From the sequence record SRR20825019_117: a stretch of 20,000 nt of DNA; one strand, 5' to 3'. The notes under the pieces were generated by a model. The model searched no databases. It saw only the letters and a program-made list of their open reading frames with translations, and was not told the DNA's origin. Below, one piece after another: positions 434 to 18,014 of this stretch. How positions within the stretch are numbered: the stretch's first letter is position 1; the number at the start of each line of letters is the position of its first letter. The translations under genes were made by a program, and so were the position numbers.

Positions 434-2245
434 TTACTCCTGATTGTTTCCCGCCCCGGTGGATTGACGTTGCGCGTCCCGCTCCCGTATCAGGTTGCGC
501 ACTTTTTCTGTCACGGCTTCATTGACCCGGCCACTCAGTTGCAGGCTGGTCAGCAACGCTGGAATGTCCTCTTCCAGATTGATATTCAGGACAATGGGAT
601 GACCATCTCGGACTTCGGGGCTGCTGCCTTCCAACCGCAATCCCAGCATAAGGGTACCATCCTGAGCGTAGTCTATCGTGCTGTTGAGAACCGAGTAGTG
701 AAAGTTTTCCATGGCCTGGACCACCAGTGCCATCGCCTGGTTACCCTGGGCCATCCCCTTCAATCGATCGGCTGGCAGTTTCAGCGTGCCGCCAGGGGCC
801 ACCGCCTGGACCTGCCCGGCATCAATGCTCACACCCTCCGGACCAACCCGGACCGGAATGGCGCCCTGAAGCAAACCACTGCCCGCCAACCCCTCGGCGG
901 GGTATACCTGCATCAGTTTCGCCAGCTCAATGCCGCTGAGTTCAAGGGGAATCCGCAGCGGCATGTCGGCAAGTTGCCATTCTCCGGGTGTGACCCGAAC
1001 CTCGCCACCCAGAAGCTCGGAAGAGGCCTGGTCCAGAACCAGGGTACCGTTGGCGATCTGATCCCGGGGTGAGCGATAGAGGCCGGCGACCCGCACATCG
1101 CGCAAGGCGATGCCCGGATTGAGGGCATCCAATACCAGGTCGGAGGTCCGGACATTTACGTGGTCATTGTCCAGGTTCAGATTCACCCTGCCGTCGAGAC
1201 CGGTCCAGGCCGTCCGGTCGTACAATCCATCAAGGTTATCGAAAACAAGATCTCCCTGAACGCGGATGCCCTGGGATGGGAAGCGCGCACTCAGGGCCGT
1301 CTCGACGCGGCCGTCACTCACCTCGAGCGCCGCTGGCCACGCGGTGAACGTATCCGCCAGCGCGCGACCGCCACTTGCTCCGACAGCGTTCATGCTCACC
1401 TCAAGCGCCGGTATCCCTTCGAACGGATAGTTCATGTCCATGTCAGCATCGACGCCGGCGTCCGACGAAAGCCTGCCGTCGATCTTCAATTCGCTGAGGG
1501 TGCCGTCCAGCTGCCCATCGAATCGCCAGGGCTGGGGAAGCAACTGGGGGTGGTGAATGGTGGCGACGGTCGCCTCAAACGGCCCCTCGACCGCAAGACG
1601 CTCCAATTCCATGGGGGTCAACTGATATTCCCCGACCAGAGTCACACCGGCCAGGTTGACCCACAGGCCATCCAACCGGGAATCCTTGCCGGGCGCGGCA
1701 ATATCGTCGAACTCGACGCGGCTTTGTTCGCCGAGGGTCAGTGTTGCAGCCTGCTCGCTGGCTGTACCGCTGACCGTCAGGTTTATCCGGCCTTCCCCCA
1801 TGGTCCAGCCAGCGAGGGCCCGCTCAGCCAAGCGACCTTCGATCTTCATGGCGCGAGTGATGAGTTGCCGTTCACCGGGTTCCAGGGGCCTTGAGATTGT
1901 CAGATCGCCCTCGGCATGGACACCTTGCGGCAGACTCAGTGCCAGTTGTTCGATCACAATGGCCTCGGGCATGGGACCATACCAGTGCCAGCGCCAGGCC
2001 AGCGACAGTTGTTTCCCCACCAGGTGATAGCGCTGCCCTTCCCGGCTCTGGGTCGCAGACAAACGGTCTAGCCGCAGGCCCGCCAGCGAGACGTCACCCC
2101 ATCGCCATTCAACGTTGCTGATGCCATTGGCCTTCCGCCAGGTCTCCCACGCCACAAGGGCGTACAGGCCTCCCGCCATCGACAACATGACAATCAGGCT
2201 CAGAAGCAGTAGCAGGCATCGGCGTAGTGTCATGAAAGCAGTCAT
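434..2245 (-). CDS. ydbH: YdbH family (AsmA-like) intermembrane lipid-transport protein
   Basis: N-terminal TM anchor, beta-rich body, C-terminal ENFHYSVL...LRLEG...PIVLNINLEEDIPALLTSL; ydbH-ynbE-ydbL synteny. Start is ATG 2245 or 2233. Confidence 0.85.
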   Translation of the reverse strand: MTAFMTLRRCLLLLLSLIVMLSMAGGLYALVAWETWRKANGISNVEWRWGDVSLAGLRLDRLSATQSREGQRYHLVGKQLSLAWRWHWYGPMPEAIVIEQLALSLPQGVHAEGDLTISRPLEPGERQLITRAMKIEGRLAERALAGWTMGEGRINLTVSGTASEQAATLTLGEQSRVEFDDIAAPGKDSRLDGLWVNLAGVTLVGEYQLTPMELERLAVEGPFEATVATIHHPQLLPQPWRFDGQLDGTLSELKIDGRLSSDAGVDADMDMNYPFEGIPALEVSMNAVGASGGRALADTFTAWPAALEVSDGRVETALSARFPSQGIRVQGDLVFDNLDGLYDRTAWTGLDGRVNLNLDNDHVNVRTSDLVLDALNPGIALRDVRVAGLYRSPRDQIANGTLVLDQASSELLGGEVRVTPGEWQLADMPLRIPLELSGIELAKLMQVYPAEGLAGSGLLQGAIPVRVGPEGVSIDAGQVQAVAPGGTLKLPADRLKGMAQGNQAMALVVQAMENFHYSVLNSTIDYAQDGTLMLGLRLEGSSPEVRDGHPIVLNINLEEDIPALLTSLQLSGRVNEAVTEKVRNLIRERDAQRQSTGAGNNQE

Positions 2246-2252
2246 CAATGGG

Positions 2253-3821
2253 TCAGTGTCCGCGCCAGTTCACCGTGTACAGATCGTGGCGGCGATCCTT
2301 GAGGTTCTTCACGGTACCGCTGTTGCGGGCGGTAAGCAGTGTTTCCGGCCGTAGATCGGCAAAGGCGACGGTCTCCACATTCGGCGTGGTATCCGCGGCG
2401 ATGCCATCACGGGCGAACGGAAAATCACAGGGTGTCAGGATGCAACTCTGGCCGTACTGCAACTCCATGTTGGGCACTTTGGGCAGGTTGCCGACATTGC
2501 CGGACATGACCACGAACAGCTGGTTTTCCACCGCACGGGCCTGACAACAGTACCGTACCCTCAGATAACTCTGGCGCTCATCGGTACAGAAAGGCACGAA
2601 CAGGATCTGGATGCCCTGGTCCACCAGATGACGCGTCAGCTCGGGAAACTCCGCGTCGTAGCAAACCAGGACCCCAATGGGGCCGCAATCGGTTTCAATG
2701 GCAGTGACACGGCTGCCACCGGTGATATTCCACCAATAGGCTTCGTTCGGCGTGGGGTGAATCTTGGGCTGCGAGAACACTTGCCCGTCTCTCAGGAACA
2801 CGTAGGCAACATTGCGAACCCGGCCGTCCTCTTCCTTGACCGGCGTGGAGCCACCGATAATGTTGATGTTGTGCCTCAGGGCCAGATCGCGCATCAGGTT
2901 GCGGAAGGGTTCGGCGTATTCCGTCACCGCTTCGATGGCTTCCGCCGGGGTCCCTTCACGGCTTTCAATGGACAGCAATTGCAGCGTGAACAACTCCGGG
3001 AACACCACGAAATCACCTTTGTAGGTGGACACCACATCCACAAAGTACCGGACGATGTCGCTGAATTCTTCAAACGATGCCACCCGGCGCTGCTGGTACT
3101 GGACCGTGCCGATCCGAACGGTGTCGGGCATTCGCCGGCCGTATCGCTTGCGCTTGCCGTTGTCGCCGTTGCGGGCCACCTTGGGATTCCTCCAGGTCAG
3201 GTGAATACCGTAACCCAGGGAAGCGTGGTCAGCATCCAGGTAGTGCGGAATAATGCCGTGGATTTCAAAACCGTTGTGTAATTGGAACGACAGTACTGGG
3301 TCCCGCTGCTTTTTCGATTTCACCGCCTCCACGTACTCTTCCACCGATTCAAACTTCTTCAGGCGCTTGGCCAGCGTCGGTAACCTGCCCGCGAACACAA
3401 CGCCCTGCAACTCCAGCGCCTGGCAGAGCGTTTTTCGTTCGTTGTACAGGCGCTCACCAATGCGGTAGCCACGGCAGTCGGGGTCTACACAAACCTCCAT
3501 GCCGTACAGCCACTCCCCTTCCGGGTCGTGGCGCGAGGCATAACCATTACCAGTAATTTCTGTCCAGTCATGGGGCGCCAATGCAACGTCTTCACCAATA
3601 CGAAACGTGGCGCAATACCCCACCACACGGTCACCCAGCATGGCGACAAACTGGCCCTCAGGAAAGGTGTTGATCTGCCCTGTCAGGGGGCCAGCTGTGT
3701 AGCCATACATCCCTGTGCCCGCGTACACTCGGCGGCTCAGGGCGATGATTCCCGGTATATCACCAAGGGTGGCGTTTCTTACGTACAGGCGCTGTGTCTT
3801 GTCTGAAAAGGGAGGACTCAT
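2253..3821 (-). CDS. GNAT acetyltransferase / carbon-nitrogen hydrolase (nitrilase superfamily) fusion protein
   Basis: N-terminal GNAT (EVCVDPDCRGYRIGERLY) and C-terminal CN-hydrolase with Glu-Lys-Cys triad (VFPE, QPKIH, VCYDAEFPE). ATG 3821 has a GAGGT RBS, so it is preferred over the ORF-track start at 3911. Confidence 0.88.
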   Translation of the reverse strand: MSPPFSDKTQRLYVRNATLGDIPGIIALSRRVYAGTGMYGYTAGPLTGQINTFPEGQFVAMLGDRVVGYCATFRIGEDVALAPHDWTEITGNGYASRHDPEGEWLYGMEVCVDPDCRGYRIGERLYNERKTLCQALELQGVVFAGRLPTLAKRLKKFESVEEYVEAVKSKKQRDPVLSFQLHNGFEIHGIIPHYLDADHASLGYGIHLTWRNPKVARNGDNGKRKRYGRRMPDTVRIGTVQYQQRRVASFEEFSDIVRYFVDVVSTYKGDFVVFPELFTLQLLSIESREGTPAEAIEAVTEYAEPFRNLMRDLALRHNINIIGGSTPVKEEDGRVRNVAYVFLRDGQVFSQPKIHPTPNEAYWWNITGGSRVTAIETDCGPIGVLVCYDAEFPELTRHLVDQGIQILFVPFCTDERQSYLRVRYCCQARAVENQLFVVMSGNVGNLPKVPNMELQYGQSCILTPCDFPFARDGIAADTTPNVETVAFADLRPETLLTARNSGTVKNLKDRRHDLYTVNWRGH

Positions 3822-3980
3822 GGAAACCTCGGAAGCTGGAAGCCTAAAGGCATAGTTCGCGAAATGTCCTCGAGCCGTCAAGTGGCCTCTGCAGAAAACA
3901 AATCGAAGCAAACTTTAACCTGACAAACCGGCGCCAGGCCTTTTAGAGTAGGCCCATGTAAAACGATTAGAGGCTTTCCC

Positions 3981-5948: not shown

Positions 5949-6124
5949 GACGACTGTCTACTCTATCAAATTGCCAGGTCCCCATGATCCCGCCAGACAA
6001 CATCGGTTGGCAAACGTGGACTCGCGCACGGAATGCACGATAATATCTGTAGCAAATATCTACAATCTTCTGTGGTTATGTCGGCGCCCCAAGCGCGCCC
6101 GCGATAAACGGAATTACAAACGCT

Positions 6125-7243
6125 ATGGACCCAGCACCCGGAAATCATCTCCAAGCCGTCAAAATAGAACTTAACCGCCTTGAGACCTACCGGCGGCGCA
6201 CCTATCTTGGCGTTCTGGCCTTGACCGTGGCTATCATGATGCTCAGTTGGGCCTTCCGGGAACAGGGCGACCCGTTCATTACCATCGCCTACCCTGTTTT
6301 TTCTGTCATTCTCACCATTCTTGGCTTCGCATTCTGGCGCCGATCCTTGCAGCTCAGAACCATGGAAATCACCCTCGTTGCCGTGGTCGGTACGATGATA
6401 CTCAGCCGCCTCGCATGGCATTTTGCGGTTGGCGACCCGCTCGGCGAACACCTTCTTTTGCTCACGGGCGGGCACTACTGGGCAGTGGGTATCATGATCG
6501 TTGGCGGTTTTATTGCGCTTGGTTTTCGGGGCGGCATGGTGACAGGTGTCGCGACCTTGCTGTTTTCGGGCGCGCTGACCACTCAGGAAGTCTCTCAATG
6601 CTTCCTGGCAGCAGGCGATCACTGTCAAAACTGGGTATACCTGCTGCGCATCCATCTGTTCCTCACCGTTCTGTTGGTGCTTACCAGCGCCGGAACGCTG
6701 CTGCGTGAACGCTCCTGGAGTGCCTTTGCGCGAGCCGAGACCCTGCACCATTGGGCGAACACAGATCCGCTATGCGGCCTGGCAAACCGCCGGGGTGCTG
6801 ACCGTTTCCTGTCTGCCGAAGCCGCCCAGGCAGACCGATACCAGCGCCCTCTGACCATCATTCTGATTGATATTGACGAATTCAAGAGCATCAACGATGA
6901 CTACGGCCACGAAGTTGGTGATGCGGTGATTCGCGAATTTGCCGCTATCCTTTCCAAAACCGTTCGTGAAGTGGACCTCGCCGCTCGCTGGGGCGGAGAC
7001 GAATTCCTCGTCGCCACACCGGGCGTGGACCTTCGCAGCGCCCGCCACGCCGCACAACGCTGCCGCCGCGCCATTGAAAGGGCACCCATCGCGGGTGTCT
7101 CCGTGACTGCCACCGTCGGTATTGCCGAGTACCTGCCTGGACAGGGCATCGAGGATGCCATCAGCCGGGCCGACGCCATGCTATACCGCGCCAAGGCCGC
7201 TGGCCGAAACCGGGTGATTACGGAGGCCTGCGAACTGGCCTGA
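6125..7243 (+). CDS. Membrane-anchored diguanylate cyclase (GGDEF)
   Basis: About 6 N-terminal TM helices; DPLCGLANRR, DIDEFKSINDDYGHEVGD, RxxD I-site (REVD), intact RWGGDEF, ADAMLYRAKAAGRNRV. Confidence 0.93.
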   Translation: MDPAPGNHLQAVKIELNRLETYRRRTYLGVLALTVAIMMLSWAFREQGDPFITIAYPVFSVILTILGFAFWRRSLQLRTMEITLVAVVGTMILSRLAWHFAVGDPLGEHLLLLTGGHYWAVGIMIVGGFIALGFRGGMVTGVATLLFSGALTTQEVSQCFLAAGDHCQNWVYLLRIHLFLTVLLVLTSAGTLLRERSWSAFARAETLHHWANTDPLCGLANRRGADRFLSAEAAQADRYQRPLTIILIDIDEFKSINDDYGHEVGDAVIREFAAILSKTVREVDLAARWGGDEFLVATPGVDLRSARHAAQRCRRAIERAPIAGVSVTATVGIAEYLPGQGIEDAISRADAMLYRAKAAGRNRVITEACELA

Positions 7244-7261
7244 ACGCTACGCGAGCATCCC

Positions 7262-7325
7262 TGCCGTTTTTGGACGACTTGGTGTCGTATTGGATTTACC
7301 ATCCTTGACCGATCCGGGCCACATT
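7262..7325 (+). promoter_or_regulatory. Putative activator-dependent promoter (tandem TGnCGT boxes plus -10 CACATT) of the flavoprotein gene
   Basis: TGCCGTTTTTGG (7262-7273)-N9-TGTCGTATTGG (7283-7293)-N26-CACATT (7320-7325); near-identical layout at 16966-16903 on the minus strand. Confidence 0.7.
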
Positions 7326-7374
7326 GAATCAAGGCCGCGCACGCGGCTGCCATTGTGGGTATAGGGGGATCGAG

Positions 7375-9945
7375 ATGGCACAACTACCGAAACGTGCAAA
7401 AGTCGTCATCATTGGCCAGGGCGGTATCGTTGGCTCATCGGTTGCCCACCACCTGATTGAACAGGGATGGGACGACATCGTCGGGCTGGAAAAATCCGCC
7501 ATTCCCTCGGACATTGGCTCTACGTCCCATGCCTCGGACTTCTGCTTCACCACCTCTCACGACAAGCTGAACATTTACACCACCAAATACAGCCAGGCGT
7601 TTTATGAAAAGCGCGGCAACTACGTGAAATGCGGTGGTATGGAAGTGGCTCGTGTCGATGACGACGAGCGCATGGAGGAACTGCGACGCAAGGTGGGCTC
7701 TGGCAAGGCCTTCGGCACCAACGTCAGCATGATTTCACCGAAACAGGCCAAAGAACTGTTTCCCCTGCTGAACGAAGACTGTATCCAGGGTGCCATGTGG
7801 GACCCGGACGCCGGGCTGGTGGTGCCCCGCTCCCAGAGTGTCGCGGGCGATCTGGTCGAAGAGGCGGTCGCTACGGGAAAACTACAGGCCTTTGCCTACA
7901 CACCGGCCATCCGCATCGATGTGCAGGACGGCCAGGTACGGGGCGTTGAAACCCACAAGGGCTATATCGAAACCGAGTACGTGGTGCTGTCCATGGGCAT
8001 CTGGGGGCCGCTGATGGCCAATACCGCCAACTCGCCCCTGCCGCTGATGCCACTGGAGCACCCACTGCTGTTCTTCGGTCCCTATGAGGAACTGGCCGGC
8101 ACCGGCAAGCAGATTGTCTATCCCTTGTTCCGCGACCAGGGTAACTCTGCCTACGTGCGTGATACCGGCGACCCCACAACCACCGAGGGTGGCCGCATTG
8201 AGTGGGGCTATTATGAATCCGAAGACCCACGGCTGGTCTACCCCGGTGCCATTTCCGAGCCCGGCGAGGCACGGATGTCGCCATCCATGCGAGACCTGAC
8301 TCTGGATCAGGTTATGGACGCTTACGAAAAAGCCATCGAAATGACGCCGATTCTCGGCGAACTGGGCTGGGAGGAAAAGCATTCCTTTAATGGCCTGCTG
8401 TCGGTCACGCCCGACGGCGGATCACTGATGGGGGAATCCCCGGAAGTGCGCAACCTGTGGTTCTGTGAGGCGGTCTGGGTCAAGGACGGCCCCGGAGCTG
8501 GCAAAGTCCTGGCGGACTGGATGACCCATGGTTCTCCGGAAATGGACCCCCACAGCATCGACATCGCCCGCCACTATCCGCTGCAGAAAACCCCGGACTA
8601 CGTGTACAACCGCTGCTACGAAACCGCCAAGAAAATCTACACGCCGGCGGTGCATCCCCGCGAGCCCTACATGACCGGTCGCAAGATGCGAACCAGCCCC
8701 TTCTATCTGCGCGAGGTGGAGCTGGGGGCCTACTTCATGGAAGCCGCCGGTTGGGAACGGGCCCACGGCTACGCCGCCAACGAGTCCACTTTGCTGGCGA
8801 AATACCGTGACCGCATTCCGGTCCGGGAACACGAATGGGACGCCCGGCATTTTTGGGAAGTCTCCAACGCCGAGCAACTTGAAATGAGCGAATCGGTGGG
8901 CATGATCAACCTCTCCCACTTCGCTATTTTCGACATCTCCGGTGACGACGCCGAAGCTCTGCTGGAGTATCTGTCCGTCGCCAAGGTGGGCGGCACCATT
9001 CCTCATGGCAAAGGTGTTTATACTCACTTCCTGGATGCCCGTGGCGGCATCCGCTCCGACCTGACCATCATCCGGCAGGGCGACAACGATTACCGGGTGG
9101 TCTGCGGCGGCGACACTGGCCATCGGGACCATTGCTGGATCAAACGCATCGCACGGGAAAAAGGCCTGCACCATATCCGCCTGCAGGACCGCACCGATGA
9201 GCTGGCCACCCTGGGGCTCTGGGGGCCGAAGGCGCGGGAAACCCTGGCTCAGTTCGTCACCAACCCTGACGAACTGTCGGCAGAAAATTTCCCATTCGCC
9301 ACCGCCCGGGAATTGAATGTCCAGGGCGTGCCGGTGTGGGCGTTCCGGATATCCTATGTGGGCGAGCAGGGCTGGGAACTCTACTTCCCGTTCAGCTATG
9401 GCCTGCGAATCTGGGACCTGCTGTACGAAGCTGGCGTTACGCCGGTTGGCATCGAGACCTACGCCAACACCCGCCGCCTGGAAAAGAGCCTGCGGCTGCA
9501 GAACGTCGACCTCGAAACGGAGTACAACCTCTACGAAGCCGGGCTCCAGCGGCCCAAGGTCAAGGAGGCCGACTTCCACGGCAAGGCCGCCTACCTGGAA
9601 CAACGAAGCTGGCCACAGCAGGCCGCGTACCTGTGCACCATGACCATGACGGAACATCGGGACGCCAACGGAGTACTGCGCTACCCGGTTGGCCAGTGGC
9701 CGATCCTCGACCCGCAAACCGGTGAGGTACTGGTGGACAGTCACGGCCGCCGCTCCTACAACACCAGCGTGGTTTGGGGACCGTCGGTGGGCAAGATCAT
9801 CCTGCTGGGGTACATTCCCGTGGAATATGCTCAGGAGGGACGGGAGCTGACCCTGGAATACTTCCAGGAGCACTACCCCATCCGTATCGAAGCTGTCGGC
9901 TACCGGGCGCTGTTTGATCCGGACAACGAACGGGTCAAGTCCTGA
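7375..9945 (+). CDS. Dimethylglycine oxidase/dehydrogenase-like flavoprotein (DAO-type FAD domain + GcvT-like THF-binding domain)
   Basis: 856 aa from ATG 7375 (GGGGGA RBS). IIGQGGIVG Rossmann motif; GSTSHA (covalent-FAD His position in DMGO); PLEH and SAYVR (His/Tyr dyad positions); TPDG; GWER; GGIRSDLT; LWGPKAR; RISYVGEQGWELY; RRLEK. Confidence 0.85.
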   Translation: MAQLPKRAKVVIIGQGGIVGSSVAHHLIEQGWDDIVGLEKSAIPSDIGSTSHASDFCFTTSHDKLNIYTTKYSQAFYEKRGNYVKCGGMEVARVDDDERMEELRRKVGSGKAFGTNVSMISPKQAKELFPLLNEDCIQGAMWDPDAGLVVPRSQSVAGDLVEEAVATGKLQAFAYTPAIRIDVQDGQVRGVETHKGYIETEYVVLSMGIWGPLMANTANSPLPLMPLEHPLLFFGPYEELAGTGKQIVYPLFRDQGNSAYVRDTGDPTTTEGGRIEWGYYESEDPRLVYPGAISEPGEARMSPSMRDLTLDQVMDAYEKAIEMTPILGELGWEEKHSFNGLLSVTPDGGSLMGESPEVRNLWFCEAVWVKDGPGAGKVLADWMTHGSPEMDPHSIDIARHYPLQKTPDYVYNRCYETAKKIYTPAVHPREPYMTGRKMRTSPFYLREVELGAYFMEAAGWERAHGYAANESTLLAKYRDRIPVREHEWDARHFWEVSNAEQLEMSESVGMINLSHFAIFDISGDDAEALLEYLSVAKVGGTIPHGKGVYTHFLDARGGIRSDLTIIRQGDNDYRVVCGGDTGHRDHCWIKRIAREKGLHHIRLQDRTDELATLGLWGPKARETLAQFVTNPDELSAENFPFATARELNVQGVPVWAFRISYVGEQGWELYFPFSYGLRIWDLLYEAGVTPVGIETYANTRRLEKSLRLQNVDLETEYNLYEAGLQRPKVKEADFHGKAAYLEQRSWPQQAAYLCTMTMTEHRDANGVLRYPVGQWPILDPQTGEVLVDSHGRRSYNTSVVWGPSVGKIILLGYIPVEYAQEGRELTLEYFQEHYPIRIEAVGYRALFDPDNERVKS

Positions 9946-9972
9946 AGGCCATCGTTCAGTCAACGCTGGCGG

Positions 9973-11355
9973 TCAGCACTCGATGATGTTGACCGCCAGC
10001 CCGCCTCTTGAAGTTTCCTTATACTTATCCAGCATATCGCGGCCGGTTTCACGCATGGTGTGCAACACCTTATCGAGGGAAACGAAATGTTTGCCGTCAC
10101 CGCGCAAGGCCATGATCGCAGCATCGATAGCTTTTACCGATGCCATGGCATTGCGCTCGATACAGGGAATTTGCACCAACCCACCAATGGGGTCGCAGGT
10201 CATCCCCAAGTGGTGTTCCATACCGATTTCGGCCGCGTTCTCAACCTGTTCCGGTGAACCGCCTGTCGCTGCAGCCAGCCCGGCAGCAGCCATCGCACAG
10301 GCCGATCCCACTTCGCCCTGACAGCCCACTTCCGCCCCTGAAATGGACGCGTTTTCCTTGAACAGTACGCCGATCGCCGCGGCTGTCAGCATAAAGCGGA
10401 CAACGCCGTCTTCATCCGCCTGGGGGCAGAACTCCCAGTAGTAATGCAGCACCGCCGGAATAATGCCAGCAGCGCCGTTGGTAGGTGCTGTCACTATCCG
10501 ACCGCCGGCCGCGTTCTCTTCATTCACGGCAAGGGCGTAGAGATTCACCCAGTCGAGCGCACTCAAAGACGGCGATATAAGGTCCACTCGCGTTTTGTCC
10601 ATCAGTGAACGATACAGCGACGCCGCTCTGCGCCGGACCTTGAGGCCTCCGGGCAACTCCCCCTCATGACGGATACCATTTTGCACACACTCACGCATTA
10701 CCCGCCAGAGTTCGAGAATGCCCGTTCGAATCTGTTCTGGCGAGCGCCAGGCCTGCTCGTTGGCCAACATAATGTCGGCGATGGTGAGTTCGTGTTCCTG
10801 GCAAAGAGCCAACAGGGTTTTCCCGCTGTTGAAGGGATAAGGCAAGGGCGTATCGTCTGCGCGGATTTCCAGGCTGCCGTCAGCGTTCGCCGCTACCACA
10901 AAACCACCGCCGACCGAGTAATAGGTGTGCTCACACAGGCACTGCCCATCCTCGTCGAATGCCTGACAGACCATGCCGTTGGGGTGTTCAGGCAGAGATT
11001 TCCGTCGGTAATACACGACATCGGAACTCTCGCGGAAACGAATCGGATGATGACCGGCAAGGCTGAGGGTTCCTGTGCTTCGAATACGCTCAAGCCGACC
11101 CGGCATTTGCTCGGGATCAATCCGGGCCGGCTCTTCCCCTTCCAGCCCCATCATCACAGCAGGGCCGGTGCCGTGGCCCTTGCCCGTAGCCCCCAAAGAG
11201 CCATACAGGGATACCTTCAGCCGACACACGGAGGCCAACAAACGTTCATCAGCAAGGCCACCTGCAAACCGGCGCGCGGCTTCCATGGGCCCGACGGTAT
11301 GGGAACTGGACGGTCCAATGCCTGCCTTGAACAACTCAAACAGACTGACAGCCAC
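9973..11355 (-). CDS. sdaA: L-serine ammonia-lyase, Fe-S dependent
   Basis: [103 protein letters not shown] 11355 with GGAGG RBS. Confidence 0.96.
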
Positions 11356-11386
11356 TTTGCAGCCTCCTACCTCGGGATGTGTTTCA

Positions 11387-11450
11387 AGGATAGCGCCTTC
11401 GGCAATCCACCGCCTGCTTGCTGACGACATTCGAACGATGGTTTACGACA
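11387..11450 (-). promoter_or_regulatory. Putative sdaA promoter with tandem TGTCGT boxes
   Basis: Minus strand: TGTCGT (11450-11445) and TGTCGT (11429-11424) are 21 nt apart; -10-like TATCCT (11392-11387) starts 37 nt after the proximal box. Confidence 0.6.
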
Positions 11451-11479
11451 GTCCTGCTCAACCAGAACAAAGGCATAAA

Positions 11480-11553
11480 CGTCGCTTCTGGATCATTCCG
11501 CAAAGCCCCGTGTCGGTTGTGGACCATTCGCTACCAAATGACCGGCATAGAAT
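11480..11553 (+). promoter_or_regulatory. Putative regulator-gene promoter / autoregulatory site
   Basis: Imperfect 18-bp direct repeat GTCGCTTCTGGATCATTC (11481-11498) / GTCGGTTGTGGACCATTC (11512-11529); TAGAAT at 11548-11553 starts 37 nt after TGTCG at 11511. Confidence 0.6.
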
Positions 11554-11682
11554 GAGATCACACTGGAACTGATCACTTATTGCACTATCAAAAGGCAACA
11601 ACTAGTGTTCAGGTTGAGGCAATAACTTGCTGTGACAGCCAGACATTGCCGCGACAGGCCCAGGCGGGGCAAGGGGGTTACC

Positions 11683-12795
11683 ATGACCACTGATACAGGC
11701 TCATACACAGACAGGCCCGCCCAAGAGCCCTATCGGGTCGGCTTCCTGCTGATCGATAATTTCACCCTGATTGCCCTCGCCACAGCCGTTGAGCCCCTAC
11801 GCATGGCCAACCAGTTGGCCGGCACTGAACTCTATTCCTGGAAGCTTCTTACGGCTGAAGGCGAACCTGCCCGGGCCAGCGATGGCATTACCATGCTGCC
11901 CGACGCGTCGATCCAGGAAGAGTGCCGGTTTGACCTGGTGATCGTAGTGGCTGGTATTGATGTTACCCGGAGTTTTTCCCGCAAAGAGGTTGTCTGGTTG
12001 AAGCAGATGGCCCGTCGCCACGTCCTCCTTGGGGCGGTCTGCACTGGCCCCTATGTCCTGGCCAGTGCGGGCCTTCTGGACGGTCACGCCTGTAGCGCCC
12101 ATTGGGAATGCCTGGAGGCCATGCAGGAAGGCTTTCCACGGGTACAAACCAACAACCGCCTGTTCACTGTCGAGCGGGAACGTATGACCTGCACCGGTGG
12201 TACCGTCCCCATGCACATGATGCTCAGCTTTCTGGCAAGGCGCCATGGCCAGGAGCTTAGTAATGCAATATCCCACATGTTTGTGTGCGACCGGGTGCGA
12301 GAGGAAAGCGAACAGCAACCGATGCCGATGCACCCCCGCCTGGCCTGCGCCCAACCCAAGCTGGCAGAGGCAGCCCAGTTAATGGAGGCCAATATCGAAG
12401 AGCCCATCGAACTGAAGGAACTGGCAACGCTGGCCGGCATTTCGCGGCGGCAACTGGAGCGGCTGTTCCTCAAGCACACGGGCTGCACGCCTTCACGTTA
12501 TTACCTGCGGGTGCGCCTTAATAGGGCGCGCCGATTGCTCAAGCAGACATCCTGCTCGATCGTGGAAATCGCCTCCATGTGTGGGTTCGTGTCAGCCACC
12601 CACTTCAGCCGGTGCTATCGCAAGACCATGGGGCGTGCCCCCAAACACGAACGAATGGAAATATACTCCCAGGGCTCTTCCAGCACAGTTTTTCCCGATT
12701 CCATGGCCAGCCTGCCGTCTTCCTCCCTGCAGGCATTGAGGCGCGCCCGGTCTGAACCGACCTATGGCATTTTCGAGAACACCGGATCAGGTTAA
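11683..12795 (+). CDS. gbdR: GlxA-subfamily AraC regulator, GbdR-like (glycine betaine/dimethylglycine-responsive)
   Basis: DJ-1-like N-domain [42 protein letters not shown]; Ara[13 protein letters not shown]...SRRQLERLF...PSRYYL...[14 protein letters not shown]. Closely follows Pseudomonas GbdR as recalled. ATG 11683 with GGGGG RBS. Confidence 0.8.
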
Positions 12796-14523
12796 CCCCA
12801 CCACCAAGCCGTTTTCATCCAGCGCAATGTCCATTGCCGCGGGGTGGCGTGGCAAACCGGGCATGGTCATGATGTCACCACACACCGCCACCACAAAGCC
12901 GGCGCCGGCTGCCAGGCGCACTTCCCTTACCGGCAGCATATGGCCGGACGGCGCTCCCTTCACCGACGAATCCGCCGAAAAGCTATACTGGGTCTTGGCG
13001 ATACACACGGGCAGGTGGCCAAATCCAAGACTCTCGTATTCCTCCAGTTGCCGCTTCGCTACTGTCGTGAATTCCACGCTACCTGCGTGATAGATACGCG
13101 TCGCGATGGTGCGGATTTTATCCGCCAGCGGCAGGCTGTCTTCATAGAGAAAGTGTACCTCCGGTGTGCCTTCGTCCATCTGATCAAGCACCGCCTGGGC
13201 CAGTTCGGTGGCACCCTCACCCCCCAAGGCCCAATGGTCGGCAGGCACTGCACGCACACCCAACGACTCACTGATGGACTGCACCAGCGACATTTCCTCC
13301 TCGGTATCGTCCGGGAAACGGTTGATGCACACCACTGGCGTCAGTCCGAACTGCTGAAGATTACGAATATGCCGCTCCAGATTGGCGGCACCCGCCCTCA
13401 AGGCAGCAAGGTCGGGAACGGATAGTTTGCTACGAGGAACCCCACCCTGCATTTTGAGGGCCCGGATGGTACAGACAACCACGGCGGCATCTGGCCGCAG
13501 GCCCGTGTGCCGGCATTTGATATCAATAAACTTTTCCGCCCCCAGATCGGCACCAAAGCCCGCCTCAGTGACCACCACATCGTTCAGCGCCAGGGCGGCA
13601 CGGGTGGCGGTCACGGAATTACAGCCGTGGGCGATATTGGCAAACGGCCCGCCGTGAATGAACACCGGGTTGTGTTCCAGGCTCTGGACCAGATTGGGCT
13701 GCAGCGCCTCCTTCAGAAGCACAGTTAACGATCCTTCCACACCCAGGTCACGAACGGTCACCGGCGTCATATCAGAGCGCCTGCCGATAATAATATTGCC
13801 CAGCCGCTGCTTGAGGTCTGCCCGACCGTCCGCCAGGCACAGGATCGCCATGATCTCGGACGACACGGTAATGTCGAACCCGGTTTCCCGAGGCACGCCA
13901 TGAGCCGCACCGCCAAGCCCACACACCATGTTCCGTAAGGAGCGGTCGGTCAGGTCCATCACCCTCCTCCAGCTCACATAGCGCGGATCCAAACCAGCCT
14001 CATTCCCCCAGTGAATGTGGTTGTCGATCAATGACGCCAGTAAATTATGGGCTGTAGTGATGGCGTGGAAGTCACCATTGAAATGCAGGTTGATGTCTTC
14101 CATCGGAATCACCTGCGCGCGACCACCGCCGGCAGCGCCCCCTTTCATGCCGAAGCAGGGGCCCAGGGAGGGTTCCCGCAGGCACACGGAAGAACGCACG
14201 CCCAGGCGGTTGAAGCCATCGTTCAGTCCCACACTCGTGGTGGTCTTGCCCTCCCCGGCTGGCGTGGGCGTAATGGCGGTCACAAGCACCAGTTTGCCCC
14301 GGGGTGCACTATCAGAGGTATCCACATAGGCCATATCCAGTTTGGCCTTGTAGTGGCCAAATGGCACCAGGCTCTCCCCCGGAAGACCGAAACGCTGTTG
14401 GGCCAGCAGCAGAATAGACTGCGGCTGGACCGAGCGAGCGATCTCAATGTCAGGAGTGCCCGGCGGCGGGAAGTCGGCTTCCGGTGGTGTTGCGGGTGTC
14501 AGCTTACTGTACTGAAGACTCAT
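12787..14523 (-). CDS. fhs: Formate--tetrahydrofolate ligase
   Basis: [103 protein letters not shown] 14523 with GAGG RBS overlaps the metF end by 20 nt. Confidence 0.96.
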
Positions 14524-15448
14524 GGAACTGACCTCTCTGGTCCTCAATGGACCCACTGTGTTCTCGAATCCATTGCGCCGATTGGCGCAGGCCACCGAAT
14601 GGGAAAAGATGAATGCCCCGTAGCAAGGTATCCGGGTTATGCAGGCAGTACTGGACAAGCGCGCGCACCATTCCGTCCGGCGACCAAGCACGCAACAGTT
14701 TGGCGCTGCCAGGACGTCGCAGCATCAGACGGGCCGATGCTCCCACCCCACATTGAGCCGCATAGGCAATGAGCGTTTTCACCCGGGTCGGGCCGGCCAT
14801 GCCAATGTACACCGGCACCTCTTCCAGGATACTGCCAAGGCTTTGCAGCCAGTCGATGACCACGTTGGCGTCAAAGGTGAACTGGGTGACCACCCAGAGC
14901 CGTGTGGACGTCGTGCGCGCGTATTCGCGTTTGATGCCAAGGGCCTGGATGAGGGTTGCCCGGTCCGCCATGGGATGCCCGTCCGGATGGGCTGCCACAC
15001 CGATACCATGGAATTGGAACTGTGCCAGCAGGCCGGACTCCAGAACCGCCAGGGTATCCTGAAAGGGGCCGGCGATCGCATCACTATCGCCAGCAATCAA
15101 CAGCAAGCGATCAACGCCGCTTTCATCCAATTGCGAGAGCCAGTCCCGGAGTTGCCCACGGCTCTCGGCCATACGTGCGGGTACGTGGGGAATCGGCTGC
15201 ATGCCAACGTTCAGCAGATGACGGCACGCCCGCAGGGTATCGCTGAACTCGCCTTTTGGCAGGAAAGGCACATAGACGCAGGTACCTCGCGGCAGCAAAT
15301 CCGGCAAGTGCTCCTGTGCCAGTATCTGGCGGGGTGTTGCCTCAATGGACGCCCAACGCACCAGAGCCTGCATCCTTGCGATGGCGTCCTCGTCGCGGGC
15401 ACTGAACGGCTGTGTATCACTCACCAGTTTCATGAATCGCGCACCCAT
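14504..15448 (-). CDS. metF: Methylenetetrahydrofolate reductase (MetF-like)
   Basis: [58 protein letters not shown]; lies between the methyltransferase gene and fhs. Start at 15448 or 15433. Confidence 0.82.
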
Positions 15449-15465
15449 TGCTACCTGTGTGCATT

Positions 15466-15496
15466 GGGCAGGCGGCAGTCACATTGCCGCCTGCCC
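15466..15496. other. Perfect 12-bp GC-rich intergenic hairpin
   Basis: GGGCAGGCGGCA (15466-15477)-GTCACAT-TGCCGCCTGCCC (15485-15496); no U-tract in the transcribed (minus) direction. Confidence 0.8.
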
Positions 15497-15506
15497 CACT
15501 GCGTTG

Positions 15507-16868
15507 TTAGTCCGCGAAGTCGATACCCTTCGCCCGTGCCCGTTCGCGGGCGTTGGGGTTCACAGAGGGCCGGAAGGGCACTTCCACCACTTCCGCCTCG
15601 ACATCCGTCGAACCATCCGCAGCGGCATATTCCACCGGCAGATGTACTGTCAGGCGGGTACCAACGGCGCGCATGTCAAACGGCACATAGGCCAGTGCGA
15701 TGTTGGTTTCCAGCTCGGGCGAGTACCAGGGAGAGGTAACGTAGCCCTCAGGCTCGCCGCCGTCTGCTCCGCTGACCAACCAGAAGTCATTGGCATAGTC
15801 GGTTACCTGGCCGCCACCAAACCGGACACCCACCATGATGTGGCTGAACGGCGGTCTGCCAGCGTCAAGTTGCTCGCGGACTTTCTCGAGCTTCTGCTTA
15901 CCGATGTAATCCGCGTCTTTGTTGCGAGGCACCTGATACGCCAGGTTGCACTGGAATGGCAGGGTTTCCTGGTCCACGTCCTGGCCCCAGGAAAGGATAC
16001 CGGCAGCTATTCGGCGGTGATGCGCCGGCGCAATCACCCTCAGGTTGTGGGCCTCACCAGCGGCAAGCACCGTGTACCAGAGGTCTTCGGCGTATTTGGT
16101 GGCTTCCTTGAGGTAAATCTCGTAGCCCTTCTCACCGGTAAAACCGGTCTGGGAGACAATCACGTCATGGCCGGCCACCTGCCCCTCCATCAAGCCATAG
16201 TACGGAATATCCTTCACTCGCTCACCGAACAGGTCAGCCATGAGCGCCTCAGATTTGGGCCCCTGGATTTGCACCGGAGCCACATCGATTTCCGCGATGG
16301 TGACGTTGAAGCCCATCCCGATGTTGACGCCTCGCAGCCAGAATTCCAGGTCGCTATCGGAAAGGGAGAACCAGAATTCGTCCTCGGCAACACGAAGCAG
16401 AACCGGGTCATTGAGAATACCGCCGTCCTCGTTGCAGAGGATGACGTACTTGCCACGCATGGGCTTTATCCTGGTGGCATCTCGAGTGATCACGTAGTTC
16501 ACGAAACGTTCCGCGTCCGGGCCCTTGACCTGAATCTGGCGTTCAACGGCGACATTCCACATGGTGACGTCATGAATCAGCGACTCATATTCCACCATGG
16601 CGCCGCCATCTTCGGGACGGACGTAGCCCCGGGGGTGATACATACGGTTGTAAACGGTCGCTCGCCAGCAACCGGCTTCGTACGCCAGGTGCCAGTACGG
16701 CGACTTGCGTACACGGGTTGAGATCAACATCTCCACCGGCGTGGGGCCGGACTGGCGTAAATTGATGGGAACCCGACGATCAGACTGGTCAACACTGTCA
16801 GGCTGGCGGGCCGCACCCGCTCGTTGTTGCGGATAATCCAGAAGTGCTTGCTCAAATTTAACGGCCAT
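15507..16868 (-). CDS. GcvT-superfamily THF-dependent methyltransferase, DmdA-like; substrate unknown
   Basis: RVRKSPY, TVYNRM, WNVAVERQIQVKGPDA, ILNDPVLL, FWFSLSDSD, IQGPKS, TGFTGEKGYEIY, RIAAGILSWGQD, TSPWYSP. The N-terminal half tracks DmdA motifs (YNHM, WDVAxERQ, NDPV, WxSxADSD). GGGGGAG RBS. Confidence 0.82.
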   Translation of the reverse strand: MAVKFEQALLDYPQQRAGAARQPDSVDQSDRRVPINLRQSGPTPVEMLISTRVRKSPYWHLAYEAGCWRATVYNRMYHPRGYVRPEDGGAMVEYESLIHDVTMWNVAVERQIQVKGPDAERFVNYVITRDATRIKPMRGKYVILCNEDGGILNDPVLLRVAEDEFWFSLSDSDLEFWLRGVNIGMGFNVTIAEIDVAPVQIQGPKSEALMADLFGERVKDIPYYGLMEGQVAGHDVIVSQTGFTGEKGYEIYLKEATKYAEDLWYTVLAAGEAHNLRVIAPAHHRRIAAGILSWGQDVDQETLPFQCNLAYQVPRNKDADYIGKQKLEKVREQLDAGRPPFSHIMVGVRFGGGQVTDYANDFWLVSGADGGEPEGYVTSPWYSPELETNIALAYVPFDMRAVGTRLTVHLPVEYAAADGSTDVEAEVVEVPFRPSVNPNARERARAKGIDFAD

Positions 16869-16902
16869 TGCTATCTCCCCCTACCGGGTTGTCGATAGCT
16901 CT

Positions 16903-16966
16903 AATGTGACCCTGTTTTCAGTTATCAGGTTGAACCAATACGACATTGGCACAACCAAAAACGTCA
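16903..16966 (-). promoter_or_regulatory. Putative activator-dependent promoter of the methyltransferase-metF-fhs operon
   Basis: Minus strand: TGACGTTTTTGG (16966-16955)-N9-TGTCGTATTGG (16945-16935)-N26-CACATT (16908-16903), matching 7262-7325. Confidence 0.72.
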
Positions 16967-17096
16967 ACACCGAGATGATGGATCCCGGAAGCCCTCCCAA
17001 AGCGCCAAGCATGAGGTGAGTAGACAGCAACCACCACCTGCTCCGTAAAGCCTGTTATATTGGTGGGGACCGTCCGTGCAGATCAAGGAGTCGACG

Positions 17097-17498
17097 TTGA
17101 CACTGACCACCCCTGCCCTTTTGTTTCCCGCCATTTCATTGTTGCTGCTGGCGTACACCAATCGCTTTCTCGTACTTGCTCAATTGATCCGTCAACTCAA
17201 ACAGATGGATACAGAAGAAGACCATGCCCTTATTGCCCGCCAGATCAGCATGCTGCGCAAACGCATTTTGCTGACCAAACGGATGCAGGCTTACGGTGTG
17301 CTCAGTTTTTTTGTCTGCACCATGTCCATGTTTGTTCTGTTTGTGGGAGCTCAGCTTGCTGGAGCAATCGCGTTCGGCATCAGTCTCGTGCTGCTGTCGG
17401 TCTCATTGTTGTATTCACTGTACGAAATCGTGATTTCCACCAACGCCATCAACGTTGAGCTTGAAAATTTCGAGGCCCGGAAACGAGCCGGGGAGTAA
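17097..17498 (+). CDS. DUF2721 family membrane protein
   Basis: LTLTTPALLFPAISLLLLAYTNRFL...LIRQL...QISMLRKRI...EIVISTNAI pattern. TTG 17097 follows AAGGAG; alternative start GTG 17076. Confidence 0.82.
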   Translation: MTLTTPALLFPAISLLLLAYTNRFLVLAQLIRQLKQMDTEEDHALIARQISMLRKRILLTKRMQAYGVLSFFVCTMSMFVLFVGAQLAGAIAFGISLVLLSVSLLYSLYEIVISTNAINVELENFEARKRAGE

Positions 17499-17585
17499 TA
17501 CACAAACGCTCAGGAAACCGAGCCAGGCGGATACAAAACCGGAGAAGGGGCAGCACAACTTTCGGAAAATATCTTGCACGGCACA

Positions 17586-18014
17586 TCATTTGTTTCTCGG
17601 GCTGACAACGGCCAATGTCACCGTTGCCTTGGAGACAAGTCGCATGTCACCAGCCTCGCCACAATAAACCTCAGACTCTACCACGGTTAACGTAGAGCCT
17701 GCCTTGAGCACAGTGGCGACACACTCGATATGTGTCCCACTGGCAGCCCTCAGCAACTTCAGCGAGAAGTCCGATGTCAGGACTATCTGCCCGGATTTAA
17801 CAGCGGAGGCACCGGCAGCACCCGCCGTGTGATCCGCCACCGTAGCCTGCACCCCGAAATGCACGAAACCATCCTGCTGCAGGTGCCGTTCCGCCAGTAC
17901 CAGGCGCGAACGGCATTCACCGGTTTTGATAGACACCAGTTCCAGACCAATATCCGCAACAAACGGTGCCGATGAAAATATCCGTTCCACTTCTTTATTG
18001 TTAAGCGTGTCCAC
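17586..18014 (-). CDS. PaaI family hotdog-fold thioesterase
   Basis: HLQQDGFVHFGVQATVADHTAGAA, LKLLRAA, VLKAGSTLTVVESEV; GTG 18014 with GGAG RBS. Confidence 0.85.
   Translation of the reverse strand: MDTLNNKEVERIFSSAPFVADIGLELVSIKTGECRSRLVLAERHLQQDGFVHFGVQATVADHTAGAAGASAVKSGQIVLTSDFSLKLLRAASGTHIECVATVLKAGSTLTVVESEVYCGEAGDMRLVSKATVTLAVVSPRNK

Follow-up and report, generated by a model that had tools for sequence, protein, structure and literature searches.

Which enzyme takes the first methyl group off glycine betaine (GB) in a bacterium whose apparent GB gene cluster encodes none of the known GB demethylases? GB ranks among the main osmolytes, and among the main labile sources of carbon, nitrogen and methyl groups, in the sea and in saline soils, and the question is raised by a 20,000-nucleotide stretch of Marinobacter DNA from sequence record SRR20825019_117 (the window, by which the whole stretch is meant), where a gene cluster and its flanking boxes occupy positions 7265-16963. 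The original prediction described the cluster as a dimethylglycine (DMG) oxidase/dehydrogenase-like flavoprotein, sdaA, a GbdR-like regulator and an operon of a DmdA-like methyltransferase, metF and fhs, and scans of the 18 open reading frames (ORFs) of the window against Pfam and NCBIfam found all of these genes at or near the predicted positions. With tetrahydrofolate abbreviated to THF and methylenetetrahydrofolate reductase to MTHFR, the features are:

7265..7293, plus strand: 29-bp box, copy 1, before the flavoprotein gene; candidate operator (exact match)
7375..9945, plus strand: N,N-dimethylglycine oxidase/dehydrogenase-like flavoprotein, 856 aa (Pfam DAO, FAO_M, GCV_T and GCV_T_C)
9973..11355, minus strand: L-serine ammonia-lyase SdaA (TIGR00720, 686.3 bits against a cut-off of 345.1)
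11683..12795, plus strand: GbdR-family AraC/DJ-1 (GATase-1-like) regulator, module-associated paralogue (NF052371, 507.9 bits against 480)
12787..14523, minus strand: formate--tetrahydrofolate ligase Fhs (NF010030, 842.5 bits against 652; PF01268)
14504..15448, minus strand: MetF-like gene, by profile match to PDB 7xg9 a type 4 (S6MTHFR-type) MTHFR
15507..16868, minus strand: DmdA-family GcvT-fold THF-dependent methyltransferase, 453 aa, candidate GB:THF methyltransferase (PF01571 and PF08669)
16935..16963, minus strand: 29-bp box, copy 2, before the methyltransferase-MTHFR-fhs operon (exact match)

None of the 18 ORFs encodes a Rieske oxygenase, a BHMT or an MttB-family protein, which bears out the claim that GbcAB, BHMT and MtgB are missing from the window. 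The methyltransferase, MetF-like and fhs genes (the trio) form a minus-strand operon in that order, the fhs start read from the sequence (ATG 14523) lying within a 20-nt overlap with the 3' end of the MTHFR gene. The SdaA frame extends to 11430, with a likely start at GTG 11355 preceded by AGGAGG, as read from the sequence (the TIGR00720 match begins at ORF residue 28), and the regulator frame covers 11632-12795 (+) with a likely start at ATG 11683.

It is suggested, with a probability of roughly 0.6, that the cluster is a self-contained, GbdR-type-regulated GB catabolic module whose first step is a cobalamin- and O2-independent methyl transfer to THF. In the scheme that we infer, GB would be the methyl donor for the 15507-16868 enzyme, which would convert GB and THF to DMG and 5-methyl-THF; the co-transcribed type 4 MTHFR (14504-15448) would oxidise 5-methyl-THF to 5,10-methylene-THF, an activity shown for the prototype of its family; and the flavoprotein (7375-9945) would turn DMG into sarcosine and methylene-THF, and may act on sarcosine too. 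Glycine would then be drained by housekeeping GlyA, which would combine it with methylene-THF to give serine, and by SdaA, which would carry serine on to pyruvate. Surplus methylene-THF would undergo one-carbon (C1) oxidation, passing through FolD to 10-formyl-THF, from which Fhs would release formate with a gain of ATP and the freeing of THF, a formate dehydrogenase being added in some relatives. A direct repeat with 21-bp spacing, shared by both promoters, would let the divergent GbdR paralogue activate them. The core of the argument is that, among onium compounds, GB alone has a demethylation product that can be used by all three of the partner systems that accompany the trio in different lineages: because DMG suits the DMG oxidase (DMGO)-like flavoprotein, the DgcAB enzyme and the combination of a DMGDH paralogue with Sox proteins, GB is probably the substrate of the methyltransferase. 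It is somewhat more likely than not that the DmdA-family enzyme is a single-protein GB:THF N-methyltransferase that, with the type 4 MTHFR, Fhs and, in some genomes, formate dehydrogenase, would make up a fourth, energy-conserving, cobalamin- and O2-free route. The original prediction had the first step need neither O2 nor B12; O2 independence would apply to that step only.

Membership of the methyltransferase in the GcvT-fold superfamily is indicated by matches to PF01571 (137.6 bits) and PF08669 (34.7 bits), both over the gathering scores, and its best solved relative is Pelagibacter ubique DmdA (3tfh, E 6e-47). The best NCBIfam model is likewise that of DmdA (NF009133), but the score of 267.5 bits falls under the cut-off of 410. 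Four other members of the family (P0005, P0047, P0094 and P0116) score 258-267 bits against the same model, and its cut-off is passed by 3 of 43 superfamily sequences (P0154, P0236 and P0264). A 45-row tree of full-length representatives, made by quick search only and with the flavoprotein's own GCV_T half as outgroup, places the window protein in a tight starred (99) clade of 8 rows, and the three sequences above the DmdA cut-off fall in another starred clade, well apart. The clade of the window protein includes proteins from Marinobacterium, Photobacterium, Parasalinivibrio, Woeseiaceae and Azotimanducaceae and one from an Azospirillaceae metagenome-assembled genome (MAG). Given the score below the curated cut-off and the separate clade, the enzyme is, on sequence grounds, related to DmdA without being DmdA. 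Conservation within its family is unusually high, at 75-98% identity over several gammaproteobacterial orders; the window protein is 97% identical to that of M. salarius R9SW1 (G001) and 98% identical to those of M. algicola DG893 and of one Marinobacter MAG. Public names for the family are generic, such as 'aminomethyl transferase family protein', and LigM-type models score 28-46 bits on the window protein. A tryptophan, W171, has been reported as specific for dimethylsulfoniopropionate (DMSP) in DmdA (PMC7487153); the position is Phe in all 7 family rows aligned, but is non-diagnostic since one sequence above the DmdA cut-off has Tyr there.

The relatedness to DmdA raises the possibility of a divergent demethylase for DMSP, or for another sulfonium such as dimethylsulfonioacetate, whose C1 partners are merely co-located and co-regulated with betaine catabolism since both osmolytes arrive together. 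This is considered unlikely, even though the closest solved and characterised relative and the best NCBIfam match both point to DmdA, since the score lies under the cut-off and the clade is apart from the sequences that pass it. A second paralogue of the DmdA superfamily, 40-42% identical to the window methyltransferase, also occurs in some Marinobacter (G129:C1:292936-293994 and G029:C9:13-933, the latter ending at a contig edge); the G129 copy is a frame of 386 aa, closer in size to true DmdA, and the existence of such a separate paralogue speaks against a DMSP role for the window enzyme. As a separate observation, a cluster of 759 proteins of about 455 aa, 61% of them archaeal (Methanobacteriota in NCBI terms), resembles family member P0005 by language-model features (score 0.97). 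P0122 (455 aa, 54% identity) may belong to this cluster, which offers a lead to halophilic Archaea, and such haloarchaeal 455-aa relatives may extend the route to hypersaline Archaea.

Of all the partner genes the MetF-like gene is the most informative. Its product scores 17 bits only against Pfam MTHFR, but a profile of 14 orthologues matches PDB 7xg9 (S6MTHFR) over the full length with 246 bits (E 4.4e-72), the other MTHFRs in the same search coming at E 8e-9 or worse, so that the protein is closer to S6MTHFR than to type 1 or type 2 enzymes. 7xg9 is the S6MTHFR of Sphingobium lignivorans SYK-6, which oxidises 5-methyl-THF and hardly uses NADH, and type 4 enzymes are defined by Leu48-Pro49, Cys219 and Pro268-Phe-Gly-Gly-Leu272 (PMC11868366). 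The window protein has the corresponding residues in FL63P64K, QC233GVG and FP283FGGL287; all 14 orthologues have C233, F284, G285, G286 and L287, at least 90% of them also have P64, and the counterpart of Arg78 is ambiguous, the invariant R92 aligning with chain residue 77 of 7xg9. By these signatures it is a type 4 (S6MTHFR-type) MTHFR, and it is predicted to oxidise 5-methyl-THF to 5,10-methylene-THF. Such enzymes have been argued to pair with THF-dependent demethylases that make 5-methyl-THF, namely LigM, DesA, CmuAB and Dmt; the survey started from homologues of these four, and DmdA and betaine go unmentioned in the accessible parts of the paper (PMC11868366). Given a type 4 partner, the upstream enzyme should deliver 5-methyl-THF by a true methyl transfer from an activated donor and should not be of the oxidative aminomethyl type, since that gives methylene-THF. 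A reading of the methyltransferase as a substitute for GcvT in glycine cleavage was dropped, as a 5-methyl-THF-oxidising partner is unsuited to aminomethyl transfer. With regard to DMSP this partner does not discriminate: DmdA makes 5-methyl-THF by redox-neutral methyl transfer (PMC5395565), the coupling suits DmdA chemistry equally, and a DmdA paralogue of SAR11 adjoins metF (PMC3160333).

What surrounds the trio in other genomes is more discriminating. Related loci (80 retained from 312 relatives in one-genome-per-species contigs) show the order methyltransferase, MTHFR, Fhs in 70 of the 75 loci whose downstream DNA extends for 3.5 kb or more; two loci have a flavoprotein paralogue instead of Fhs. 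Four long-read MAG chromosomes carry MTHFR and Fhs in one uninterrupted ORF of about 855-900 aa (L081:11292-13988, L099:11320-13887, and the same frame in L096 and L102; in L099 the Fhs model starts at residue 323), which looks like a natural fusion. The M. lipolyticus group and Tamilnaduibacter have fdhD and genes for formate dehydrogenase alpha, beta and gamma between fhs and gbdR, which fits Fhs working towards formate. A gene for the demethylation of DMG or sarcosine lies within 10 kb in 67 of the 80 loci, by three unrelated solutions. In Marinobacter and relatives it is the DMGO-like flavoprotein, found in 42 loci at 60% identity or more. In 17 gammaproteobacterial MAG loci it is a different DMGDH-family paralogue, 28% identical to the window flavoprotein and followed by soxB in six loci (L082, L094, L095, L103, L105 and L106), some of which also have soxA. 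In five Photobacterium loci the trio stands after soxB-soxDAG and before a block of M19 dipeptidase, DUF5943, dgcA, dgcB and etf genes, SoxB scoring 700.9 bits against a cut-off of 529. Sox genes also adjoin the trio in two further loci, from an alphaproteobacterial MAG and a Woeseia MAG, and a short Photobacterium contig has soxA upstream of it. Pseudomonas aeruginosa and Vibrio natriegens have the same sox and dgc blocks with gbcA and gbcB for the first step (PMC12093977), and by gene order the trio of Photobacterium occupies the place of gbcAB in that layout. Synteny and co-occurrence thus lend comparative support, at the level of sequence, to a link between the methyltransferase and DMG/sarcosine catabolism in three lineages.

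These surroundings speak against DMSP catabolism. In Photobacterium the trio is flanked by sox and dgc genes, 65 of the 80 loci have a GbdR-type regulator next to it, and no genes of the methylmercaptopropionate (MMPA) pathway were found among the scanned neighbours, which amount to 103 of 244 listed ORFs (37 of 113 and 66 of 131) taken apart from the trio genes and distant ORFs and called greedily, so that some are spurious in high-GC loci. It is equally a matter of context whether some other quaternary or N-methyl compound is the donor (choline, proline betaine, beta-alanine betaine, a carnitine-derived betaine, trigonelline or homarine), the product of which would feed into the DMG/sarcosine enzymes or be handled alongside them. 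Room for such a substrate is left by the DmdA superfamily, many clades of which are uncharacterised, and in Marinobacterium arenosum the methyltransferase gene is directly preceded by that of a solute-binding protein of the tripartite ATP-independent periplasmic (TRAP) type, DctP (L073:8716-9804), the sole transporter adjoining the trio among the scanned neighbours. However, all three partner systems take substrates of the DMG class, and only GB gives DMG. The same neighbours show no recurrent enzymes for other carbon skeletons, and the presence of sdaA in 22 of 47 Marinobacter-labelled loci indicates glycine and serine as the end product, so that a donor of this kind appears improbable.

Genome-wide presence and absence were examined in the nearest complete genome, M. 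salarius R9SW1 (97% complete and frameshift-rich). It has no GbcA (NF058607, cut-off 670), the sole full-size Rieske oxygenase being BenA at 119.9 bits; no BHMT, the sole PF02574 match lying in a 1235-aa frame of MetH size; and no MttB (PF06253), which likewise gave no match in five other module-bearing genomes. DgcB and a SoxB above cut-off are absent from it as well. It has one folD and one glyA, the latter about 14 kb from the cluster. Each of the computational checks proposed with the original prediction, these searches among them, came out as it had anticipated. A 701-aa ORF of the OYE family was considered as DgcA and rejected, being FadH-like and adjoining mnh genes in a genome that has no DgcB. 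Frameshifts in G001 split the flavoprotein (714 + 224 aa), mnhA (453 + 394 aa) and folD (G001:C1:3706946-3709512; L024 13932-16333); given the intact copies in the window and in other Marinobacter, the split genes look like assembly errors rather than pseudogenes.

An order-level sample of 301 genomes held only 6 family members (at least 74% identity), too few for a test of complementarity, and 121 Marinobacter genomes, of which 100 have a completeness of 90% or more, served as a genus sample instead. The methyltransferase is found in 44 of the 121, the flavoprotein in exactly the same 44, and the two share a contig in 43. This complete co-occurrence with a DMG-oxidase-like enzyme again argues against DMSP as the substrate. 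GbcA is present in 10 genomes, and DgcB in those 10 and in G401. Both are missing from 38 of the 44, so that 38 genomes have the present module only, 4 the GbcA type only and 6 both. GbdR scores above its cut-off in 48 genomes, namely 43 of the 44, the four with GbcA only, and G401; that of G001 was probably missed because of a frameshift. By gene content, Marinobacter has two alternative modules, one of Pseudomonas type (GbcA, DgcAB and GbdR) and one of methyltransferase, type 4 MTHFR, Fhs, DMGO-like flavoprotein and GbdR. The proposal that the demethylase stands instead of GbcAB therefore holds for 38 of the 44 module-bearing Marinobacter, and not for the six that also carry GbcA-DgcB. Among 15 genomes reached through the related loci, GbcA was found in four (M. 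lipolyticus, also in the genus sample, being one of them), in all of which the trio has no DMG gene within 10 kb, and was not found in the other 11 (four Photobacterium, Tamilnaduibacter and six MAG chromosomes). In genomes with GbcA, the trio would be redundant unless it served another substrate such as DMSP.

The two promoters of the cluster carry a common sequence. The motif CGTTTTTGG-N9-TGTCGTATTGG occurs exactly twice in the window, on the plus strand 82 nt ahead of the flavoprotein ATG and on the minus strand 67 nt ahead of the methyltransferase ATG, and was matched in 0 of 200 shuffled controls, even at 3 mismatches; the shared promoter boxes noted at the outset are thus real, as an exact 29-bp box at both catabolic promoters. 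No such box stands ahead of sdaA in the window. Among the 80 related loci the box is retained at both positions in nearly all from Marinobacter, the copy of the methyltransferase operon lying about 68-97 nt ahead of the methyltransferase ATG. Photobacterium, Marinobacterium and Saccharospirillum have a degenerate form, CGTTTTTGG-N9-TGTCGTA..., ahead of the methyltransferase gene. Its half-sites, GCCGTT and GTCGTA, are spaced 21 bp apart in a pattern (G)NCGT(T/A) with a 21-bp period. The CdhR site, GGTCGC-N15-GGTCGC, is a direct repeat said to resemble the sites of GbdR, SouR and ArgR, and the layout of the box agrees with the CdhR, GbdR and SouR sites (PMC5806209). The box is a candidate operator that would be bound by the adjacent GbdR-family regulator. 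Scans of 7000-17200 for sigma-70 promoters and terminators gave counts no higher than the shuffle level.

The regulator itself has PF01965 (DJ-1_PfpI) and PF12833 (HTH_18) and passes the GbdR equivalog model NF052371 by a narrow margin (507.9 bits against 480). Against this model the copies linked to the module reach 487-518 bits, those linked to GbcA 555-569 bits. In Pseudomonas, GbdR responds to GB and DMG (PMC12093977). The six Marinobacter genomes with both GB modules (G309, G335, G340, G361, G373 and G376) have two GbdR paralogues, one beside each module, at about 561-569 bits beside gbcA-dgcB and about 487-511 bits beside the trio, and the two lineages may have different ligands. That genomes with both systems keep a second, lower-scoring GbdR by the trio is a further point in favour of an N-methyl substrate other than GB.

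The flavoprotein has as its best solved relative the DMG oxidase of Arthrobacter (1pj5, E 1.2e-108, full length), followed by mammalian DMGDH (E about 5e-72), and its four-domain architecture, with closest similarity to DMG enzymes, places it in the DMG oxidase/DMGDH family. G001 has no glycine-cleavage T protein, its sole GCV_T-domain genes being the flavoprotein and the methyltransferase of the cluster, and Tamilnaduibacter has the same two and one weak match of 24 bits, below the family cut-off; glycine would therefore have to exit through GlyA and SdaA. The sdaA gene, proposed to drain serine, is confirmed in the window but is a variable member of the cluster, present in fewer than half of the Marinobacter-labelled loci.

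Since G001 yielded neither sarcosine oxidase nor sarcosine dehydrogenase (the remaining DAO-family proteins of this genome resemble DadA and pipecolate oxidase), the methyltransferase might instead fill the sarcosine step of Marinobacter, through a non-oxidative demethylation of sarcosine or of DMG, and GB itself would not be degraded. Clusters for DMG and sarcosine only are seen in Vibrio fluvialis (PMC12093977), and GcvT-fold O-demethylases such as LigM indicate that non-onium donors are possible (PMC11868366). Nevertheless, this is very unlikely for two reasons: first, Photobacterium and several MAGs already cover both later steps, with DgcAB or DMGDH and with SoxBDAG, and the trio is still present. 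Second, as a matter of general chemistry, a quaternary ammonium should donate methyl to N5 of THF much more readily than a tertiary or secondary amine. In the five genomes checked for GCV_T-domain proteins, a DMGDH-like gene or one of SoxA size was present somewhere in every case, and no module-bearing genome without a way to use DMG was found among them.

For GB as the donor, therefore, the original prediction finds support in synteny, co-occurrence and the 5-methyl-THF-oxidising class of the MTHFR, and the substrate itself is read from that context. Several points weigh against it. The only characterised close relative of the enzyme acts on a sulfonium, not an ammonium, and true DmdA, in work by Reisch et al. 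in 2008, reportedly does not accept GB. Its specificity would thus have had to change; the separate clade is compatible with this but is no proof of it. The missing sarcosine enzyme of G001 is a gap in the pathway as drawn, and the genome-wide absences are those of this neighbour and not of the genome from which the window comes. Three loci (L058, L061 and L077) have fhs right after the methyltransferase gene with no MTHFR between (a gap of about 220 bp in L058). In two loci from Azotimanducaceae/Pseudomonadales MAGs (L099:17059-18765 and L102 near 17220) the DMGDH paralogue is directly followed by a gene of the MttB superfamily (PF06253 358 bits; TIGR02369 309 bits, below its cut-off), which may give the cluster a second methyltransferase, of the corrinoid-dependent type. 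GbcA-DgcB with a second GbdR coexists with the module in 6 of the 44 Marinobacter, and GbcA with the trio in 3 of 14 genomes beyond the genus sample, that is in 9 of the 58 module-bearing genomes examined; the separate GbdR paralogues in genomes with both systems could mean different inducers. Phaeobacter, on the other hand, is a documented case of redundant GB demethylases (preprint 10.64898/2025.12.19.695462). GB does not support growth of V. fluvialis, which does grow on DMG and sarcosine and whose cluster has no GB demethylase (PMC12093977), and a hole in a pathway is thus not compelling on its own. No literature report of growth on GB by a module-bearing, GbcA-less Marinobacter was found.

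The cluster's left-hand neighbours in the window are unrelated to it: a 604-aa protein that matches the YdbH model in the C-terminal half of the model only (434-2248, minus strand), a 552-aa protein with a weak GNAT match and a carbon-nitrogen hydrolase domain (2253-3911, minus strand), and a membrane-anchored GGDEF diguanylate cyclase (6125-7243, plus strand) immediately upstream of the flavoprotein promoter. The stretch 6000-18000 is covered by contigs, from a relative about 90-95% alike, of two RNA-Seq libraries of one study (X6 and X9); these are long, multi-gene and possibly DNA-containing, and show neither induction nor operon structure.

As had been supposed, the route does not appear to have been characterised: no description of a GB methyltransferase of the GcvT/DmdA family was found in the accessible full-text literature, from which subscription journals and supplements are largely missing, so that absence is unproven. 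BHMT/MtgE, GbcAB and MtgBCD are the only GB demethylases listed in the available text of three sources (PMC9321204, PMC12478193 and 10.64898/2025.12.19.695462), and MtgBCD was presented in 2025 as closing a gap at an uncertain first demethylation step (PMC12478193). The nearest prior idea found in print is that of Sun et al. (2011), who speculated that SAR11_1303, a GcvT-like paralogue beside a GB transporter, acts in GB metabolism, and in whose account the aminomethyltransferase paralogue SAR11_1265 adjoins metF (PMC3160333). In that paper this is speculation only, made without function or an argument from MTHFR class. Both a DmdA-type methyltransferase and the pairing of a demethylase with a type 4 MTHFR are already known kinds.

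If the proposed module does degrade GB, marker-gene surveys of GB turnover would change, as current ones would miss these organisms, and GB use would be uncoupled from the supply of cobalt and B12 and, at the first step, from oxygen. The route would occur in about one third of the Marinobacter species sampled, in Photobacterium and in many uncultured marine Gammaproteobacteria. In the North Pacific, DMG-oxidase transcripts were mostly gammaproteobacterial and gbcA was detected at 3 of 5 stations only (PMC9321204), and the module would account for the use of GB in Gammaproteobacteria with DMG oxidase expression and no gbcA. The DmdA superfamily would use ammonium as well as sulfonium donors, which bears on dmdA-like genes as markers for DMSP, and a second, large physiological setting would be added for the newly defined type 4 MTHFR class.

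Set against known systems, the methyltransferase shares with DmdA of P. ubique and Ruegeria pomeroyi (3tfh) the GcvT fold, PF01571 with PF08669, and a GYE(I/V)Y folate-binding stretch. It differs in having about 40% identity over about 280 residues, in being about 70-80 residues longer through N- and C-terminal additions, and in its context, which is betaine and not DMSP catabolism. The logic of the trio is that of the LigM/DesA system of SYK-6, which comprises S6MTHFR and LigH, the latter an Fhs. There, and likewise with CmuAB and Dmt, a demethylase is followed by a type 4 MTHFR and a formate-THF ligase (PMC11868366), whereas the window demethylase is of the DmdA branch and its donor would be an osmolyte with an N-methyl onium group in place of the aryl methyl ether or chloromethane. 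From MtgBCD, which has the same net reaction in that a GB methyl ends on THF (PMC12478193), it differs in that three proteins and cobalamin are needed there and one GcvT-fold protein would suffice here; from BHMT/MtgE in that the acceptor of BHMT is homocysteine. The GbcAB-DgcAB-SoxBDAG systems of P. aeruginosa, Chromohalobacter and V. natriegens follow the same route, from GB through DMG, sarcosine, glycine and serine to pyruvate (PMC12093977), under the same regulator family and, in Photobacterium, with the same sox and dgc blocks, but here the methyltransferase would replace the Rieske monooxygenase, and its product would be 5-methyl-THF, not formaldehyde. Compared with the Pseudomonas type, Marinobacter furthermore has the DMGO-like flavoprotein in place of DgcAB, has no tetrameric sarcosine oxidase that could be found in G001, and has Fhs, which would gain ATP, in place of PurU.

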